From the NCBI GenBank assembly GCA_035496575.1, contig DATJEN010000195.1, positions 511 to 64,510 on the forward strand: a DNA stretch of 64,000 nucleotides, in the 5' to 3' direction. The translations under genes and the position numbers were made by a program. Shown here one piece after another: positions 4,677 to 10,629 of this stretch. Each line of letters starts with the position of its first letter. Position 1 is the stretch's first letter. The stretch is from Pirellulales bacterium. GTDB lineage: Bacteria; Planctomycetota; Planctomycetia; Pirellulales; PALSA-1355. The notes under the pieces are model-generated. The model did no database searches and had not been told where the DNA came from. It saw nothing but the letters and a program-made list of their open reading frames with translations.

Positions 4677-4748
4677 GACGCTCAAGCCCAACGGCGCGGC
4701 AACTGCCTGCAAAGCAGTTCACAGCGGGTTCGACTCCCGCCGGCGTCT
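4677..4748 (+). tRNA. tRNA-Cys(GCA)-like gene, 72 nt, one acceptor-stem mismatch
   Basis: Hand fold: GACGCTC AA GCC CAACGGCGC GGC A ACTGC CTGCAAA GCAGT TCACA GCGGG TTCGACT CCCGC CGGCGTC T. It has a 3-bp D stem, a GCA anticodon, a canonical T loop and discriminator U73 as expected for Cys. Pair 6-67 is a U-G wobble and pair 7-66 is a C-C mismatch. A cleaner tRNA-Cys lies at 35201..35272. Confidence 0.5.
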
Positions 4749-5990: not shown

Positions 5991-6203
5991 CTAGAGTCCC
6001 AATGCTTTTTTGATGCCTTTTCGGCGAGCCTTTCGGCGAGCTTTCCGCTTGGCAACTCGCTTTTCTACTCCTTCGATTACATTCTCGACGGCTTTTTTGA
6101 TTCGACCAACAACCGTCTTTTTCCGTTTTCCAACGTTCTTCTTCACCGCCTTTTTTGTGGTCTTCTTTTTTTTCGACGCCGCTGCCTTCTTTTTCTTCGC
6201 CAT
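5991..6203 (-). CDS. lysine/arginine-rich histone H1-like small basic protein (70 aa)
   Basis: Track ORF 5991..6257 trimmed to the ATG at 6203, which is preceded by AGGAGG 4 nt upstream. Sequence begins MAKKKKAAASKKKKTTKKAVKK and ends RKARRKARRKGIKKALGL. By hand count it has 24 K and 8 R in 70 residues (46% basic). Confidence 0.7.
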   Translation of the reverse strand: MAKKKKAAASKKKKTTKKAVKKNVGKRKKTVVGRIKKAVENVIEGVEKRVAKRKARRKARRKGIKKALGL

Positions 6204-6274
6204 AAATCCTCCTGACCTTGTTGAGCTTCTGGACGCGCGCTCGCGCGTCGCTAGCATCGAACAGAGTGGTTTTT

Positions 6275-6295
6275 AACTGCTAACGGTTAGCAGTT
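6275..6295. promoter_or_regulatory. perfect 10-bp inverted repeat (candidate operator) in a divergent promoter region
   Basis: AACTGCTAAC G GTTAGCAGTT. It lies 72-92 nt upstream of the K-rich gene start (6203, minus strand) and about 180 nt upstream of the PEP-CTERM gene (6474, plus strand). No downstream T-run is present on either strand, so it is not a terminator. Confidence 0.4.
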
Positions 6296-6473
6296 CAACA
6301 AGCAGCAAATGGTGGCCACAAATGATTCGAGCTGAAACTATCCCGGCGGTTGCCTACCGTTCCCTTGCGCGTCGCGGAGCGAAGGCCCGGGCGCGCAGGG
6401 GTTTTCGCCCTTTCGGGCTGTTATACTTTGTGCGTCCCAGACCCAACGCCACCTACGACGGCCAACTTCACAG

Positions 6474-7070
6474 ATGACTGCTGCTTCGATTCGACAGGTC
6501 GTTTTTTCTGCCTTCTTGGTGGTTGGCTCTGCGACGCACCTCCTTGCTGCTTCAATTACATACGATGGTCTCAACCGACCAACAAGGATTCCTGCAATCA
6601 ATCTCCCGGGCCACGGGACTTTCGACGTTGTTGTTCGATACGAGTCATTTGAGAGTGTATTTGGGATTGGCAACCCCCCGAGCCCCTTGACACCTCTCTT
6701 TTGGGGCGACCTCGCCGGCGCCCAAGTAGCGACCGCCGCAATCGCCCAGGCACTAAATGATGACGGTCCCGTCTTGCCACAACTTCCTACTTCTGTTTTT
6801 CTGTTCTTTATGAGCGTGCCGTTCGACTACGATTCGAGACCGGGGAACACGTTCGGGTGGGTTAGGTCTCAGGATGTGTACGTTTTTACTTCTCAGCCGC
6901 ACCCTATGTACTCCGGTGGTGGAAGCGATGTGAACGCGCCAACCGCCAGCCTCGAATACGTCGGGTGGGCGAGCTTTGAAGTTGTTCCCGAACCCTCCAC
7001 GCTCTTCCTAGCCATGTTCGGACTCGTCGCCCTTCTCGCTACGTGGAACTGGCGCGTAATCCCGGAATAG
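6474..7070 (+). CDS. PEP-CTERM sorting-domain secreted protein
   Basis: N-terminal signal peptide (VVFSAFLVVGSATHLLAAS). The C-terminus reads VPEPSTLFLAMFGLVALLATWNWR, which is the PEP motif plus a TM helix plus a basic residue. Confidence 0.8.
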   Translation: MTAASIRQVVFSAFLVVGSATHLLAASITYDGLNRPTRIPAINLPGHGTFDVVVRYESFESVFGIGNPPSPLTPLFWGDLAGAQVATAAIAQALNDDGPVLPQLPTSVFLFFMSVPFDYDSRPGNTFGWVRSQDVYVFTSQPHPMYSGGGSDVNAPTASLEYVGWASFEVVPEPSTLFLAMFGLVALLATWNWRVIPE

Positions 7071-7230
7071 GTCAAGCCCGCGCACTTTAGCTGCGGGTGC
7101 ATCGGCCCTACGGTTTTGAACAGGAGCCCCGCTAGCGCGCGCTGGTGGTTGACGGCCTACAACACGTCGAGGGGGGCCGGAGCGCGGGAGAAGAGAGCGT
7201 AGCGAACAGTTTTCAGCAGATTGGCAGAGC

Positions 7231-7268
7231 GCGCCCGGTGCAGTCCATGAGGACAATGCACCGGGCGC
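7231..7268. terminator. 12-bp GC-rich hairpin between convergent genes (bidirectional terminator candidate)
   Basis: GCGCCCGGTGCA (7231..7242) pairs perfectly with TGCACCGGGCGC (7257..7268). It sits between the PEP-CTERM gene end (7070, plus) and the Nif11-like gene end (7287, minus). Only weak T-rich tracts flank it. Confidence 0.45.
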
Positions 7269-7286
7269 CACTGTTCTTGCCAGGCT

Positions 7287-7550
7287 TTAGTTCATGCAGC
7301 GAGCCGCAGAAATAAGCTGTTCGGCGGTGAACTGACAACCGGCGGGGCCTTTCGCGGCCAACCGAACGCGGGCCGCATCTTCATACTCTTTCGCCGTGAA
7401 ATTGAATCCGGCCGCCGTCGCGATTCGCACGATCTCCTCCAGTCCGTTCGTGTCGGTCATCTTGATCGCCGACAACTGCTCGCGAAGCTGCGCGTTCTTT
7501 TGAACCTGCTTCAAGAACGCATTGGCGTCGCGGTTTTGCTTGGTTTTCAT
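7287..7550 (-). CDS. Nif11-domain small protein (possible Nif11-type leader peptide precursor)
   Basis: 87 aa. AFLKQVQKNAQLREQLSAIKMTDTNGLEEIVRIATAAGFNFTAKEY matches the Nif11 N-terminal domain pattern (aFL..v..d..L...l......eeiv.iA...GF.ft.ee). It is followed by a 36-aa tail with two Cys (GCQFTAEQLISAARCMN). ATG at 7550. Confidence 0.7.
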   Translation of the reverse strand: MKTKQNRDANAFLKQVQKNAQLREQLSAIKMTDTNGLEEIVRIATAAGFNFTAKEYEDAARVRLAAKGPAGCQFTAEQLISAARCMN

Positions 7551-7927
7551 GATCCTTTTATCTCCGACTAGGAAGAGCTGTCGAAAAACCTCAACGTCGC
7601 AATTAGCGAACGTGGAGAACTATCGCAACGCTAGGTTAGAGGTGACCTTAGTCAAAAGGATGCTGCGGTCTGGGGCGCATGGCGCGGTTAGTCCCAGAAA
7701 CGTGGCTGGCGGCAGTCTGAAATATCGGATGCATTGAATTCAGACTCCCGCAGGTATCGATTGGGAGGATTACGAGGTCGCTGATCATCAAGACCGAGAC
7801 TGGCGGGTGTCACTGACACCTGCAAGCGTCAGGACGCGACGCTAGAAGTTGAACCTACGGAAGCCCACCATCGAAAGGTGCGCGGGCTTTTTTTGCGCGC
7901 GTGACTGCGGGTGCAATGGGGCAGACC

Positions 7928-8125
7928 TTAGACACCGCCCTCAAGTCGTGCCGTCTTAGCTCGGCGCACCGCGCGGTCGCGCTCGCGACGAATCGTGTCG
8001 CTCGGCTTGACGTAGAATTCGCGGCGCCGCATTTCTCTCTTGATGCCGCTGCGTTCAACCAACTTGCGGAATCGCCGAACGGCTTCTGAAATCGGTTCGC
8101 GGTCCCTCAGCTTCATATAGACCAT
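7928..8125 (-). CDS. rpsU: 30S ribosomal protein S21
   Basis: Track ORF 7928..8230 trimmed to the ATG at 8125, with GGGAG 5 nt upstream. [57 protein letters not shown] aligns with the canonical S21 pattern (V.V..nE....AlRRFkr..ek.G...e.rrre.yeKPs..r). Confidence 0.9.
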
Positions 8126-8257
8126 AGTCGCTCCCATGTTAGACGCCGGTTCCAAAAATTCTCCAGCCGTAGCAACCGCGCAGCAATAAACCAGCAACGT
8201 GCTTGGCTGACAGAAAAAGGCTTGCCGCAACTCTCGTCACGACAAGCCTTTATTTAG

Positions 8258-8330
8258 TGCTCCCTGATGGACTTGAACCATCAACCCTCTGATTAAGAGT
8301 CAGATGCTCTGCCAATTGAGCTAAGGGAGC
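8258..8330 (-). tRNA. tRNA-Lys(CTT), 73 nt
   Basis: Reverse complement folds as GCTCCCT TA GCTC AATTGGCA GAGC A TCTGA CTCTTAA TCAGA GGGTT GATGG TTCAAGT CCATC AGGGAGC A. All stems are Watson-Crick, the anticodon is CUU and CCA is not encoded. Confidence 0.95.
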
Positions 8331-8740
8331 GGGCGAAGCACTGCTGGCCGCCGGTTCCATGGTACTGAGATCGCGCCCAACGGCCAAGGGGTGAGCCCGG
8401 TTTCGTAATGCTTTACCGCCTGAGGCGGTATTTGAGGCAACTACGCTAGTGAAGTCCACTGGCCGGCCATCTGGATGGTCCGGATGGTCTCAATGAAAAG
8501 CATCGCTAGGATAGCGCGGCATACTCGAGCGCGGCGAGCTCGATCGGGTCGTGATGAAGGCGCGAGACAAGCGGCGTTTGAGGCGGTCTGCAAAAGAACG
8601 AAAGTGGATCACTTCCAAAATTGAAATGTCGTCGGCCGGTGATAGGTTACTGCATGTTCAACGACGCGCTCGTTGAGCGCGATCACCACGAGTGATCGGG
8701 GTATCCCAAGAGCTCGGCGCGGACAACGGGTATCTATAAG

Positions 8741-8783
8741 AGCCCGTAACGGTGCGAGCACGCGCCGGCTACGGGCTTTTTTT
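8741..8783 (+). terminator. rho-independent terminator / attenuator-like hairpin immediately upstream of the toxin-like gene
   Basis: AGCCCGTA (8741..8748) pairs with TACGGGCT (8770..8777). An inner stem pairs CGGTGCG (8750..8756) with CGCGCCG (8761..8767) around the tetraloop AGCA. A run of 7 T follows (8777..8783). The SD GGAGGA and the ATG at 8801 come 10-18 nt later. Confidence 0.6.
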
Positions 8784-8800
8784 ATGACCGGAGGAAGCCC

Positions 8801-9036
8801 ATGTATCCGAATTCGCGCAAGGAAATCCAGGTCGGCCCGGCCGAAAACTCATCCCATCCCGAAGCTTGGCTGTTCGCGCAAGAGATCCTGGGAAGACCAA
8901 TTCCGAGGCCACCCAGTGCGGCCGCAGCGCGGCGCGACCGTGAACAACTGGAATGGCTTGCGAGTATTTCCGACAGACATGCCGCGGAATGTCGCGCATA
9001 TGAAGGGCTGAAGCCGAGGCACGTCATCAGCGCGCG
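8801..9036 (+). pseudogene. frameshifted 5' segment of the toxin-like gene (or a remnant duplicate of its N-terminus)
   Basis: ATG at 8801 has the best SD of the locus (GGAGGAAGCCC-ATG). It encodes ...RDREQLEWLASISDRHAAECRAYE in frame 2, homologous to MLEWLATISDRHADELRRLQAAE that opens the 9037 ORF in frame 1. The nucleotide alignment shows the first repeat unit is 92 nt where 93 nt would be in frame: 11 nt (TATGAAGGGCT) in place of the 12 nt seen in unit 2. Confidence 0.55.
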
Positions 9037-9120
9037 ATGCTGGAATGGCTTGCCACAATCTCCGATCGCCACGCCGATGAGTTGCGGCGGCTCCAGGCGG
9101 CGGAAGCCGAAGCCCGCGAC
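8948..9120 (+). repeat. tandem duplication of a ~93-nt (31-aa) unit, LEWLA(S/T)ISDRHA...AEAEAR
   Basis: Unit 1 starts at 8948 and unit 2 at 9040, a period of 92 nt. The first 14 nt are identical (CTGGAATGGCTTGC) and the remainder is roughly 60-70% identical. GAAGCCGAGGCACGTCAT in unit 1 corresponds to GAAGCCGAAGCCCGCGAC in unit 2. Confidence 0.75.
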
Positions 9121-10629
9121 GGCAACTCGCTCGGACAGTGCCACGGCAATGGTTCACTTGTGAACGAGGCGTGGGTGCCGAGTCAGCACCCGCGCTTGGG
9201 TGGCCAGCCGAATGCAGGATATTTTGCGTCGACCGGAGGATCAGCCGGAAGTATGGTTCCGGCGAGCACGGCGCTCGCTGGCGTCGAAGCCGATCCCGAT
9301 GACGACAGGGGCGAGCTGACTGTCACGCCCAGCATGATTCGAGCAAGTGGATGGCTCGGTACCGTTCGCGAGAAGATGCGACTGGCGCGCGATGTTGCAG
9401 GTGCATTTGCCGCCGGATTGGGAACCGGGGCCAAGGCGGTCGTCAACGGGCTTGCTACTGGGACACGTAGCGTGGCGACGCTCGGATTGAACACGGATCA
9501 ACTCGAATTGATCGGGGTCACCAAGGAGGATCGAGAGCGCGGGTACGATACGGCGGTGACCATTAGCACGGGAAGCGGCCAGCTACTGATCGCGGTTGGA
9601 ACCGGCGGCATGACATCCGCTCTTGCCAAAGGCGGCACGATTGCCCGCGCGGCGAGCGGTGCGCTGATTGCCTATGACGCCGCCGGCAATGCCGTGGGAG
9701 TGGTGCAAGGAGTGTTAGACGCCGAAGAAAAAGGCCTGACGCTGGCCAACGGGACGAAAGTGGCGGCCAGCGCGCTTGGGATTTCCGCCAATATCAGTGC
9801 GGCGAAGGGCCTTCTCAAACCTCGTTCAGTCGCCCCGCCGGCGGAAGCGCCCCCTCGCACAACGCCTCCGCCCGCTAAGCCATTGGACTCGGAGTTTCGA
9901 GTGGGGAAACATGGCGACATGCCGTCGCCGCGTCCAGGGCAGCACTCACATCACGGTGTCATGTCGGAATGGGTCAGAAATCATTACCCGGGTTACGATC
10001 CGGATAAGGCCCCAGCCATATTGATGCCAAAGGAAAGCCATATAGAAACATACAGGGTATACAACAGTTGGAGGGCCCAAACGAAAAAAGAGTTCAGCGG
10101 CGCTTTCGATTGGGCTAAGATCGATGAAGACAGCATACGAGACGTGTCTGAGAAGATGTTCGATGCTGCAAAGGTGCCTGCAAGCGTGCGTGAACGGTAC
10201 TGGACAGAATTTGAACGTATGAAAGCTGCCCTTGAGCGACAGCGTCGATCACAGTCATTGGAACGAGGACTTGCGAGAGAATCGCTTATGAACGCAAATG
10301 CCGACATTCTGACGGACGAACAAATGAGAAGCCGATATGGACGCTTTTACGAAATAAGTCCCCGGCTTCAGTTAGATCGACGCCACGTTCCGATGCAATT
10401 CTGGCCCTTGTTGCCTTACGCTGAGTTCTGGGGATTTGCCGATGACTGGACAAGGCAAGACCTGGTGAGGCGCGCGCCACCCGACGTGCAACGCAACTTG
10501 AAGGAAGTACTCTCGATGTTCGATGACGCATTTGACGAATGGTTGGCCGGCCCGGAAGTTGCCGCCCCTAAACTCTCGGACGAATACGTCGCATTTACAG
10601 CGCTTCGCATGGCAGCCGATTTCGCTTGA
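9037..10629 (+). CDS. polymorphic-toxin-like multidomain protein: Gly/Ala-rich (pre-toxin TG-like) region, Pro-rich linker, xHH (SHH) HNH/EndoVII-like C-terminal module, immunity-like tail
   Basis: 530-aa ORF.
- aa 110-260: Gly/Ala/Thr-rich amphipathic segments (AGAFAAGLGTGAKAVVNGLATGT, LLIAVGTGGMTSALAKGG).
- aa 262-283: Pro-rich linker PRSVAPPAEAPPRTTPPPAKPL.
- aa 285-400: GQHSHHGVMSEW...APAILMPKESHIETYRVYNSW, resembling the xHH ... LP...H...Y pattern of the AHH/LHH/SHH/GHH HNH-EndoVII toxin families.
- aa 418-530: a separate acidic/aromatic domain.
Domain calls come from motif recollection, not from a search. Confidence 0.55.
   Translation: MLEWLATISDRHADELRRLQAAEAEARDGNSLGQCHGNGSLVNEAWVPSQHPRLGGQPNAGYFASTGGSAGSMVPASTALAGVEADPDDDRGELTVTPSMIRASGWLGTVREKMRLARDVAGAFAAGLGTGAKAVVNGLATGTRSVATLGLNTDQLELIGVTKEDRERGYDTAVTISTGSGQLLIAVGTGGMTSALAKGGTIARAASGALIAYDAAGNAVGVVQGVLDAEEKGLTLANGTKVAASALGISANISAAKGLLKPRSVAPPAEAPPRTTPPPAKPLDSEFRVGKHGDMPSPRPGQHSHHGVMSEWVRNHYPGYDPDKAPAILMPKESHIETYRVYNSWRAQTKKEFSGAFDWAKIDEDSIRDVSEKMFDAAKVPASVRERYWTEFERMKAALERQRRSQSLERGLARESLMNANADILTDEQMRSRYGRFYEISPRLQLDRRHVPMQFWPLLPYAEFWGFADDWTRQDLVRRAPPDVQRNLKEVLSMFDDAFDEWLAGPEVAAPKLSDEYVAFTALRMAADFA

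Follow-up and report, generated by a model that had tools for sequence, protein, structure and literature searches.

A probable planctomycete polymorphic toxin gene that joins a Tox-SHH nuclease to a fused immunity domain

A 64,000-nucleotide (nt) stretch of a Pirellulales genome (contig DATJEN010000195.1, forward-strand positions 511 to 64,510; hereafter the window) carries at 9037..10629 on its plus strand an open reading frame (ORF) of 530 amino acids (aa), which an initial annotation, made from the letters alone, had described as a polymorphic toxin with no recognizable trafficking domain. We verified this frame in the ORF list of the window, and it is real beyond chance, as it matches the Pfam family Tox-SHH (E 2.4e-11) and a search of 5.8 billion proteins returned 137 relatives at E <= 1e-3, of which all those with a name come from Pirellulales or Planctomycetia. 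Residues 110-260 are composed of 19% Ala, 16% Gly, and 9% Thr, and an LEWLATIS repeat occupies aa 2-9. With good confidence, the best explanation of 8801-10629, a region that includes coding sequence upstream of the called ORF, is a member of a planctomycete polymorphic toxin family in which a Tox-SHH DNase is fused to its immunity domain. In intact homologues of 604-618 aa the order of parts is a ~130-aa leader, a Gly/Ser spacer, a ~160-aa pre-toxin domain, and a Pro-rich linker, followed by a predicted Tox-SHH DNase, a short basic linker, and a 113-aa immunity domain, with the domain identities established by sequence comparison. The features in the window are listed in Table 1, and residue numbers refer to the called 530-aa ORF.

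The nuclease assignment is carried by the only Pfam match in the ORF, Tox-SHH (PF15652), whose score of 44.7 bits exceeds the family's gathering cut-off (22.7) and which aligns aa 304-394 with profile positions 6-93 of 96. As GQHSHHGVMSEW occupies aa 301-312, the SHH triad is S304-H305-H306; the motifs quoted in the initial annotation were correctly placed, apart from the triad histidines, which it had numbered H303/H304. These three residues and H335, within APAILMPKESHIETYRVYNSW (aa 325-345), are invariant in 12 homologues and are the candidate catalytic residues, and together they fit the Tox-SHH signature “[SG]HH, H” of Zhang et al. 2012 (PMC3482391). The profile match is in line with the HNH/EndoVII-type toxin that had been proposed for the C-terminal module, and, as described below, the C-terminus varies among relatives instead of being fixed. 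Searches of NCBIfam and of PDB sequences returned nothing meaningful for the query. An AlphaFold2 (AF2) model of aa 279-530 reached a predicted local distance difference test (pLDDT) score of 90.9 and places two short strands and helices around the SHH motif. Tox-SHH proteins V2c, Tke4, and Txe4 have been reported as type VI secretion system (T6SS) effectors, with DNase activity shown experimentally for V2c and Txe4 and neutralization of V2c by its cognate immunity protein V3c (10.1101/2023.03.20.533438).

The initial annotation had read the whole C-terminus as a toxin module, which holds for the nuclease but left the last 113 residues unexplained. Some Tox-SHH homologues end right behind the toxin domain, and the gene directly 3' of these unfused toxins encodes 113 aa in L001, which has two copies, or 101 aa in L002; such stand-alone downstream proteins are 57-63% identical to query aa 418-530. 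A search with aa 418-530 alone yielded 75 proteins, the majority of them stand-alone and the majority exactly 113 aa in length, none with a Pfam domain and none with a source name beyond “hypothetical protein”. The Tox-SHH immunity partners listed previously are SUKH, Imm11, Imm24, Imm30, and Imm55 (PMC3482391), and eight members of the 113-aa family searched against Pfam at E <= 10 gave sub-threshold noise only and matched none of the known Tox-SHH immunity families; nor did the family have a relative among PDB sequences. In the fetched loci the 113-aa module stands behind every Tox-SHH, a strict pairing of toxin and immunity module. On this comparative evidence, aa 418-530 are predicted to be the cognate immunity protein of the nuclease, belonging to a new family of 113 residues and fused to the toxin in frame.

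Nine full-length proteins contain the fusion, and all fused homologues keep a Met at the position where the stand-alone proteins start; of seven loci, six have the immunity ATG and the toxin in one frame. The stretch from toxin to immunity is free of stops in the window, L004, L007, and L021, while L001 and L019 have a single stop, at different places; the immunity gene is separate in L001, L002, and L019, and in the alignment the fused forms have a Gln codon, CAG, at the site of the L001 TAG. Fused and unfused forms are interspersed in a neighbor-joining tree of the toxin domain without bootstrap support, and on the same tree we rejected the fused proteins as a single clade. Since a separate immunity gene is lacking at the fused loci, the source of protection would have to be either the fused domain itself or a product of the internal Met, 5' of which GGAGG or AAGG is found in some fused loci. 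The literature searched contained no relevant description of natural toxin-immunity fusions in systems acting between bacteria.

Orphan cassettes or poly-immunity arrays were observed in L001, L007, and L024, and none in the window. At L001 (7404-8203) a copy of the toxin gene's last 15 nt (gcgttgcgaaagtag) precedes the second 113-aa immunity gene, indicating that the toxin 3' end and the immunity unit were duplicated in tandem, and the next gene (8241-8894) belongs to the SUKH family. At L007, Imm11-like and Imm1 genes lie further downstream.

The family is polymorphic, as the initial annotation had supposed. The part 5' of the Pro-rich linker (the N-part) is common to more than 100 planctomycete proteins, and homology to most relatives, those without an SHH toxin, ends at query aa 259-266, just before the linker. 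The N-part is joined to unrelated C-terminal toxins in 99 homologues, whose tails comprise Tox-REase-2 (24), Tox-SHH (23), DddA-like deaminase (4), colicin E5 RNase (1), a few HNH variants, and ~40 without a known domain. Species-representative genomes contributed 24 loci, all from metagenome-assembled genomes of Planctomycetia, Pirellulales, or Thermoguttaceae, with up to three copies per genome. L002, L018, and L024 represent a single chromosomal locus of related strains. The DNA flanking it on either side is 84-95% identical, but from the pre-toxin domain's end up to and including the immunity genes the three share no homology and hold three different cassettes. Behind the current toxin of L024 are a Tox-SHH 3' remnant and two immunity remnants, and remnants of a toxin 3' end with immunity are also found elsewhere (P0130, P0132, and P0163). 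In the window itself, GC content falls from 0.62-0.65 in the N-part to 0.52 in the toxin, and GC at third codon positions from 0.65-0.69 to 0.43, in both cases exactly at the linker. Toxin-immunity cassettes are thus swapped behind the Pro-rich linker, which is the outcome that the homologue survey proposed with the initial annotation had looked for. The cassettes of L002, L018, and L024 lie at ~6200-8700 in each locus, 3' of an S41 peptidase gene (96% identical protein). A description of this toxin family was not found in the literature searched.

These observations bear on the possibility that the gene is an intracellular fused toxin-antitoxin or abortive-infection system, with the immunity domain as a cis-antitoxin that frees the nuclease under stress or when a phage attacks, in the manner of fused proteins such as CapRel. 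Such a system would account for toxin and inhibitor sharing one polypeptide in the nine full-length homologues, and for the lack of a signal peptide and of nearby secretion genes. It is nevertheless very unlikely in our judgment, since the same N-part bears numerous toxin tails that are unrelated to one another and each have small genes of their own downstream, and the pre-toxin domain is common to RHS and PT-HINT toxins; moreover, poly-immunity arrays (SUKH, Imm11, Imm1) and displaced cassettes are hallmarks of intercellular toxins, and the fused and unfused forms do not separate in the toxin tree.

A scan of 1.84 billion representative proteins with the N-part gave 242 matches at E <= 1e-3 and splits it in two, into module A (the leader) and module B (aa 105-266, the pre-toxin domain). 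Module A consists of a PSEAWLFAQAILGxP box, two LEWLAxISxRHxxELR repeats, and a W-[DN]-x-x-x-HPR-x-G...G-[WQ]-[FW] box, which in intact leaders reads W-D-x-x-K-HPR-x-GG-P-N-x-G-W-F. The HPR box motif is present in 62 fetched proteins, and within it W46, P52, R53, and G61 are nearly invariant among the 99 homologues. Module A also stands at the head of proteins that lack module B, where its tails are PT-HINT (P0293), DddA-like (P0309), WHH (P0279), DUF4951 (P0324), or uncharacterized. A 179-aa ORF at L028 (6046-6585) carries the leader end and the WDPSKHPRRGGPPNAGWF box followed by a different tail, rich in Lys/Ala, without the pre-toxin domain, an arrangement in which the leader combines with further partners. 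In P0232 (830 aa) an HPR-G box (FERMHPRGQPQNAGQFVRNGG) lies at ~400-425 behind an unrelated 400-residue N-terminal region, with the pre-toxin domain at 568-724, and the HPR box may be a functional unit of its own. A phage origin of the leader and HPR box was rejected, as a tblastn search of 50,697 phage records gave nothing at E <= 1; the PHROGs search returned no more than weak “head decoration” noise, which fell on the Gly-rich part (E 0.005-0.03).

Module B also recurs in giant proteins (2,400-4,800 aa), where 150-300 residues separate it from the C-terminus. Two of these have RHS repeats (P0253, with 10 matched RHS_repeat stretches at E 1.4e-127, and P0297), a third, P0271, bears the source name “RHS repeat-associated protein”, and in P0212 module B comes after the DPSGL motif of the RHS core. 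In P0252 module B is followed by PT-HINT and a barnase-type RNase, so module B is separate from PT-HINT. Its position in RHS proteins and before PT-HINT points to a pre-toxin domain that stays with the toxin. The initial annotation had likewise seen a pre-toxin module here, by its likeness to PT-TG; the placement stands, while the PT-TG identity was rejected, as PT-TG (PF14449) had no match at E <= 10 in the query, E <= 0.01 in the 99 homologues, or E <= 5 in 22 divergent copies. The same 22 copies had no Pfam match of any kind at E <= 5, and a module B profile found no relative among PDB sequences. In the AF2 model a mixed alpha/beta core spans ~aa 140-225 (pLDDT 79-89), which speaks tentatively against the amphipathic character ascribed to this Gly/Ala/Thr-rich region and against a glycine-zipper or amphipathic-helix reading of it; the rest of the module is poorly modelled, as is half of the N-part. 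Fold searches with the N-part gave monocot mannose-binding lectins as the best PDB match (E 0.4, template modelling score (TM) < 0.3) and a best BFVD match of E 0.03 (TM 0.11), both taken as noise.

None of the usual delivery modules is visible, and on this point the initial annotation was right. Pfam recognized no trafficking domain in the query or the 99 homologues, and the homologues, a family of ~450-620 aa, contain no RHS, PAAR, LXG/WXG, TpsA, or MafB-N module; RHS repeats occur only in the separate giant proteins that contain the pre-toxin domain. The leader has no Pfam, NCBIfam, or PHROG match in the query or in intact homologues. It precedes toxins of at least eight different downstream architectures without adjacent machinery, and it may plausibly be a new delivery module. 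The window holds no secretion system among its ten largest ORFs, all of which are housekeeping or planctomycete genes. FliM/FliN, GFO, and S41 neighbor genes were considered as clues to secretion and set aside as locus-specific synteny only. At L006, split FliM/FliN-like genes (8733-9586) lie directly 5' of P0096; no other locus showed them, and the synteny is probably a coincidence.

Nuclease colicins E2-E9 combine a coiled coil with a Gly-rich region and a C-terminal nuclease to which an immunity protein is bound, and the similar layout here raises the possibility of a diffusible, colicin-like bacteriocin, released by lysis or leakage with its immunity protein attached and shedding it on entry, with the coiled coil as receptor stalk and the Gly-rich region for translocation. 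The lack of nearby secretion genes and the colicin E5 RNase tail of one family member would agree with this. We consider it unlikely, as there is no sequence or fold likeness to colicin T or R domains and a lysis gene was not observed, the pre-toxin domain is found inside RHS proteins too, which use other delivery routes, and the chromosomal, multi-copy, housekeeping context is unlike that of colicin plasmids.

The 5' end of the gene lies upstream of the called ORF. Full-length homologues (604-618 aa) have ~80 residues more at the N-terminus, and the ORF at 8801-9163, whose translation starts MYPNSRKEIQVGPAENSSHPEAWLFAQEILGRPIP and goes on to REQLEWLASISDRHAAE, begins like these homologues and like P0012 (92-93% identical). 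In tblastn searches with P0002, P0018, and P0035, the first ~65 residues (P0002 aa 6-66) align up to window position 8995, and the ATG at 9037 has no Shine-Dalgarno-like motif 5' of it. The orthologous locus L004, from another metagenome, is ~96% identical and differs by one T that is absent from the window between 8989 and 8990, by AGA at the site where the window has a TGA in the downstream frame (9001-9003), and by 8 substitutions inside a 25-nt lesion patch. The predicted start of the gene is therefore 8801, with a conserved leader of 79 residues that appears to be cut off by the frameshift and the TGA. The repetitive coiled-coil-like N-terminus of the initial annotation is retained as a confidently modelled helix, but its start at 9037 is an artefact of the frameshift. 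Within this region, a DNA repeat (8948-8984 and 9040-9076) is 78% identical.

Table 1 Features of the toxin-immunity gene in the window
Feature	Coordinates	Strand	Basis or remark
Shine-Dalgarno-like GGAGG	8790..8794	+	6 nt 5' of the start codon at 8801; sequence read
Predicted true 5' end of the gene, leader (MYPNSRKEIQVGPAENSSHPEAWLFAQEILGRPIP...) and first LEWLAxISxRH coiled-coil repeat	8801..8989	+	Translation; other frame than 9037
Leader ORF as assembled, 120 aa	8801..9163	+	Out of frame after ~8990; overlaps the main ORF
Lesion patch	8987..9007	+	DNA alignment with orthologue L004
Second LEWLAxISxRHxxELR coiled-coil repeat, aa 1-37 of the called ORF	9037..9147	+	AF2 helix, pLDDT ~95
W-x-x-x-HPR-x-GG-x-P-N-x-G-[WY]-F box, WVPSQHPRLGGQPNAGYF, aa 46-63	9172..9228	+	Conserved among homologues
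Gly/Ala-rich pre-toxin domain (module B), aa 105-266	9349..9834	+	Homologue alignments; in no Pfam family
Pro-rich linker PRSVAPPAEAPPRTTPPPAKPL, aa 262-283	9820..9885	+	Recombination breakpoint between conserved N-part and variable cassette
Tox-SHH nuclease domain (predicted His-Me finger), aa 286-401	9892..10239	+	Pfam PF15652; match aa 304-394 = nt 9946-10218
Arg-rich linker ERQRRSQSLERGLARESL	10240..10287	+	Same stretch is the toxin-immunity intergenic spacer in relatives
Predicted fused immunity module, aa 418-530 and stop codon	10288..10629	+	Starts at a conserved internal ATG

The lesion is either a real disruption or an assembly error. If real, the window gene could be a decaying relic, a pseudogene of which only the immunity part is kept as “orphan immunity”, whether as a product of ATG 10288 or as an inert fusion. 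This alternative takes a sizeable, though minority, share of our confidence. The frameshift and in-frame TGA separate leader from body, a second contig, L003, carries the identical lesion, two other deletions, of 1 nt and 27 nt, affect L004, remnants of toxin 3' end and immunity exist elsewhere (P0130, P0132, P0163, and L024), and the ATG at 9037 lacks a ribosome-binding site. Set against this, most substitutions that distinguish the window from L004 are synonymous (synonymous to non-synonymous 7:1 in the toxin and 13:4 in the pre-toxin domain), a pattern that persists even 3' of the L004 frameshift, so that either purifying selection acted until recently and inactivation is recent or the indels are technical assembly errors. 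In addition, the rest of the 530-codon frame is intact with the catalytic residues all present, and many family genes in long-read assemblies have frameshift truncations that look technical. Among the latter, dozens of leader-only ORFs of 95-270 aa (P0330-P0428) come from long contigs, mostly of long-read assemblies, and have tails that resemble out-of-frame translation beginning shortly after the Gly run behind the HPR box; these are probably homopolymer errors of such assemblies, a real frameshift hotspot being also possible. Owing to these tails, the leader-only ORFs were rejected as a separate protein class, and programmed frameshifting at the leader-body junction was set aside, since L004 reads straight through.

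In the reading that we prefer, an intercellular polymorphic toxin, the leader would steer the protein to an export machine encoded away from the gene. The pre-toxin domain would travel with the toxin and probably aid entry into the target cell, as suggested by its place behind the cleavage motif of the RHS core. The Tox-SHH DNase would then degrade target DNA and kill cells devoid of the 113-aa immunity protein. Within the producer itself, the nuclease would be kept inactive by the immunity domain fused to it, and free immunity protein, for which the internal ATG at 10288 is a probable additional start, would guard against toxin from kin. For the fused form to act as a weapon, the immunity tail would have to be removed during export or entry. 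The window copy as assembled would give at best a leaderless, self-neutralized toxin-immunity protein and a free immunity protein, and would thus donate immunity instead of acting as a weapon, provided that the lesion is not an error of assembly. A more specific version, in which the leader is the recognition signal of an undescribed planctomycete export or packaging route, the fusion is a working self-inhibited pro-toxin, and single CAG to TAG changes toggle lineages between fused and split forms, is offered tentatively, and taken jointly we hold it to be rather doubtful.

Several observations weigh against an intercellular toxin that works as proposed. The window copy is disrupted by the missing T and the TGA, and L004 has lesions of its own at other sites, the 27-nt and 1-nt deletions mentioned above. 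A covalently tied toxin would be harmless in the target unless its immunity part were removed, and no cleavage site or protease was identified. Upstream of ATG 10288 the window has only a weak GAGAGAA, and the relative placement of toxin and immunity domain in the AF2 model is uncertain (predicted template modelling score, pTM, 0.59). The structural comparison proposed with the initial annotation gave a confident model, but a Foldseek search of the PDB with the toxin-immunity model found no His-Me-finger or other match at E <= 0.001. Finally, no secretion or export gene is conserved near the examined loci, and the delivery step is for that reason purely one that we infer.

Comparison with known systems separates what is familiar in this family from what appears to be new. 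The T6SS effectors V2c (Agrobacterium tumefaciens 1D1609), Tke4 (Pseudomonas putida), and Txe4 (P. plecoglossicida) likewise have PF15652, the SHH motif, and a downstream His, with the cognate immunity gene directly 3', as in this family. They differ in carrying PAAR/DUF4150, FIX, or Rhs N-termini and in being T6SS-dependent, whereas the family described here has an undescribed leader and pre-toxin domain without T6SS context, and their immunity proteins are separate polypeptides of other families. The polymorphic toxins (RHS, CdiA, LXG, MafB) surveyed by Zhang, de Souza, Anantharaman, Iyer, and Aravind in 2012 (PMC3482391) share with it a conserved N-part, a pre-toxin region, and a hypervariable C-terminal toxin, as well as adjacent immunity genes, orphan cassettes, poly-immunity arrays, and several paralogues per genome. 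Unlike them, this family has no signal peptide, TPSASD, PAAR/VgrG, WXG/LXG/LDXD, PVC peptidase, SpvB, PrsW, or MuF, and its immunity partner is none of the five listed families and is often in the same ORF as the toxin. Known pre-toxin domains (PT-TG PF14449, PT-HINT PF07591, PT-VENN) occupy the same place directly 5' of the variable toxin across delivery architectures; the “GL-x-TG-x-KA-x-VNG” start of module B recalls the TG motif superficially, but there is no PT-TG or other Pfam match. In nuclease colicins (E2, E7, and E9 with Im2, Im7, and Im9) an HNH-superfamily DNase is similarly held inactive by a small helical immunity protein, through a non-covalent complex, whereas here the tie is covalent, the families are unrelated, and the genes are chromosomal, multi-copy, and planctomycete. 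The Tox-SHH warhead and the polymorphic-toxin mode of working are already known. The leader, the pre-toxin domain, and the immunity family appear to be new, each being absent from Pfam, NCBIfam, PHROGs, and the PDB.

Planctomycetes are abundant in soil and water, and their ways of fighting other bacteria are almost unknown, for which this family offers a testable entry point. Its uncatalogued modules carry known nuclease and deaminase warheads, among them DddA-like deaminases, a group that attracts interest for base editing. With the leader as a probe, the export machine might be found, and the pre-toxin domain, a link between the small toxins and giant RHS toxins, may have a part in entry into target cells. 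The recurrent layout of toxin and immunity in one ORF bears on how a nuclease is restrained in its producer and how immunity is supplied to kin. For the window itself, the practical consequence is that the gene call was truncated by a frameshift and that the copy may be disabled.

The surroundings of the gene are those of an ordinary planctomycete chromosome, with PSCyt2/PSD1, PQQ dehydrogenase, PrkA, SpoVR, PtsI, and FabG/FabZ-like genes, and a scan for promoters and terminators around the gene gave chance level only. A tRNA-Lys(CTT) gene lies at 8257-8330 on the minus strand, which the initial annotation had taken as an integration hotspot. This was not borne out, as no integrase was called near the tRNA, no tRNA-end (att-like) repeat was found, and the related strain L004 has the same upstream DNA; a genomic island at this tRNA was rejected on the first two grounds. 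Further upstream, an Rfam tRNA model matches 4677-4748 (+) at 41.6 bits (E 2e-05), where ARAGORN calls no tRNA, and this may be a degenerate or unusual tRNA. A 198-aa protein at 6474-7070 (+) ends in a PEP-CTERM-like sorting signal (VPEPSTLFLAMFGLVALLATWNWR) and adjoins an 87-aa Nif11-family protein (Pfam PF07862) at 7287-7550 (-), which could be a peptide precursor. An 88-aa ORF at 5991-6257 (-) is extremely Lys/Ala-rich (KKKKAAASKKKKTTKKAVKK...), and is either a histone-like, nucleoid-type basic protein or an artefactual ORF.

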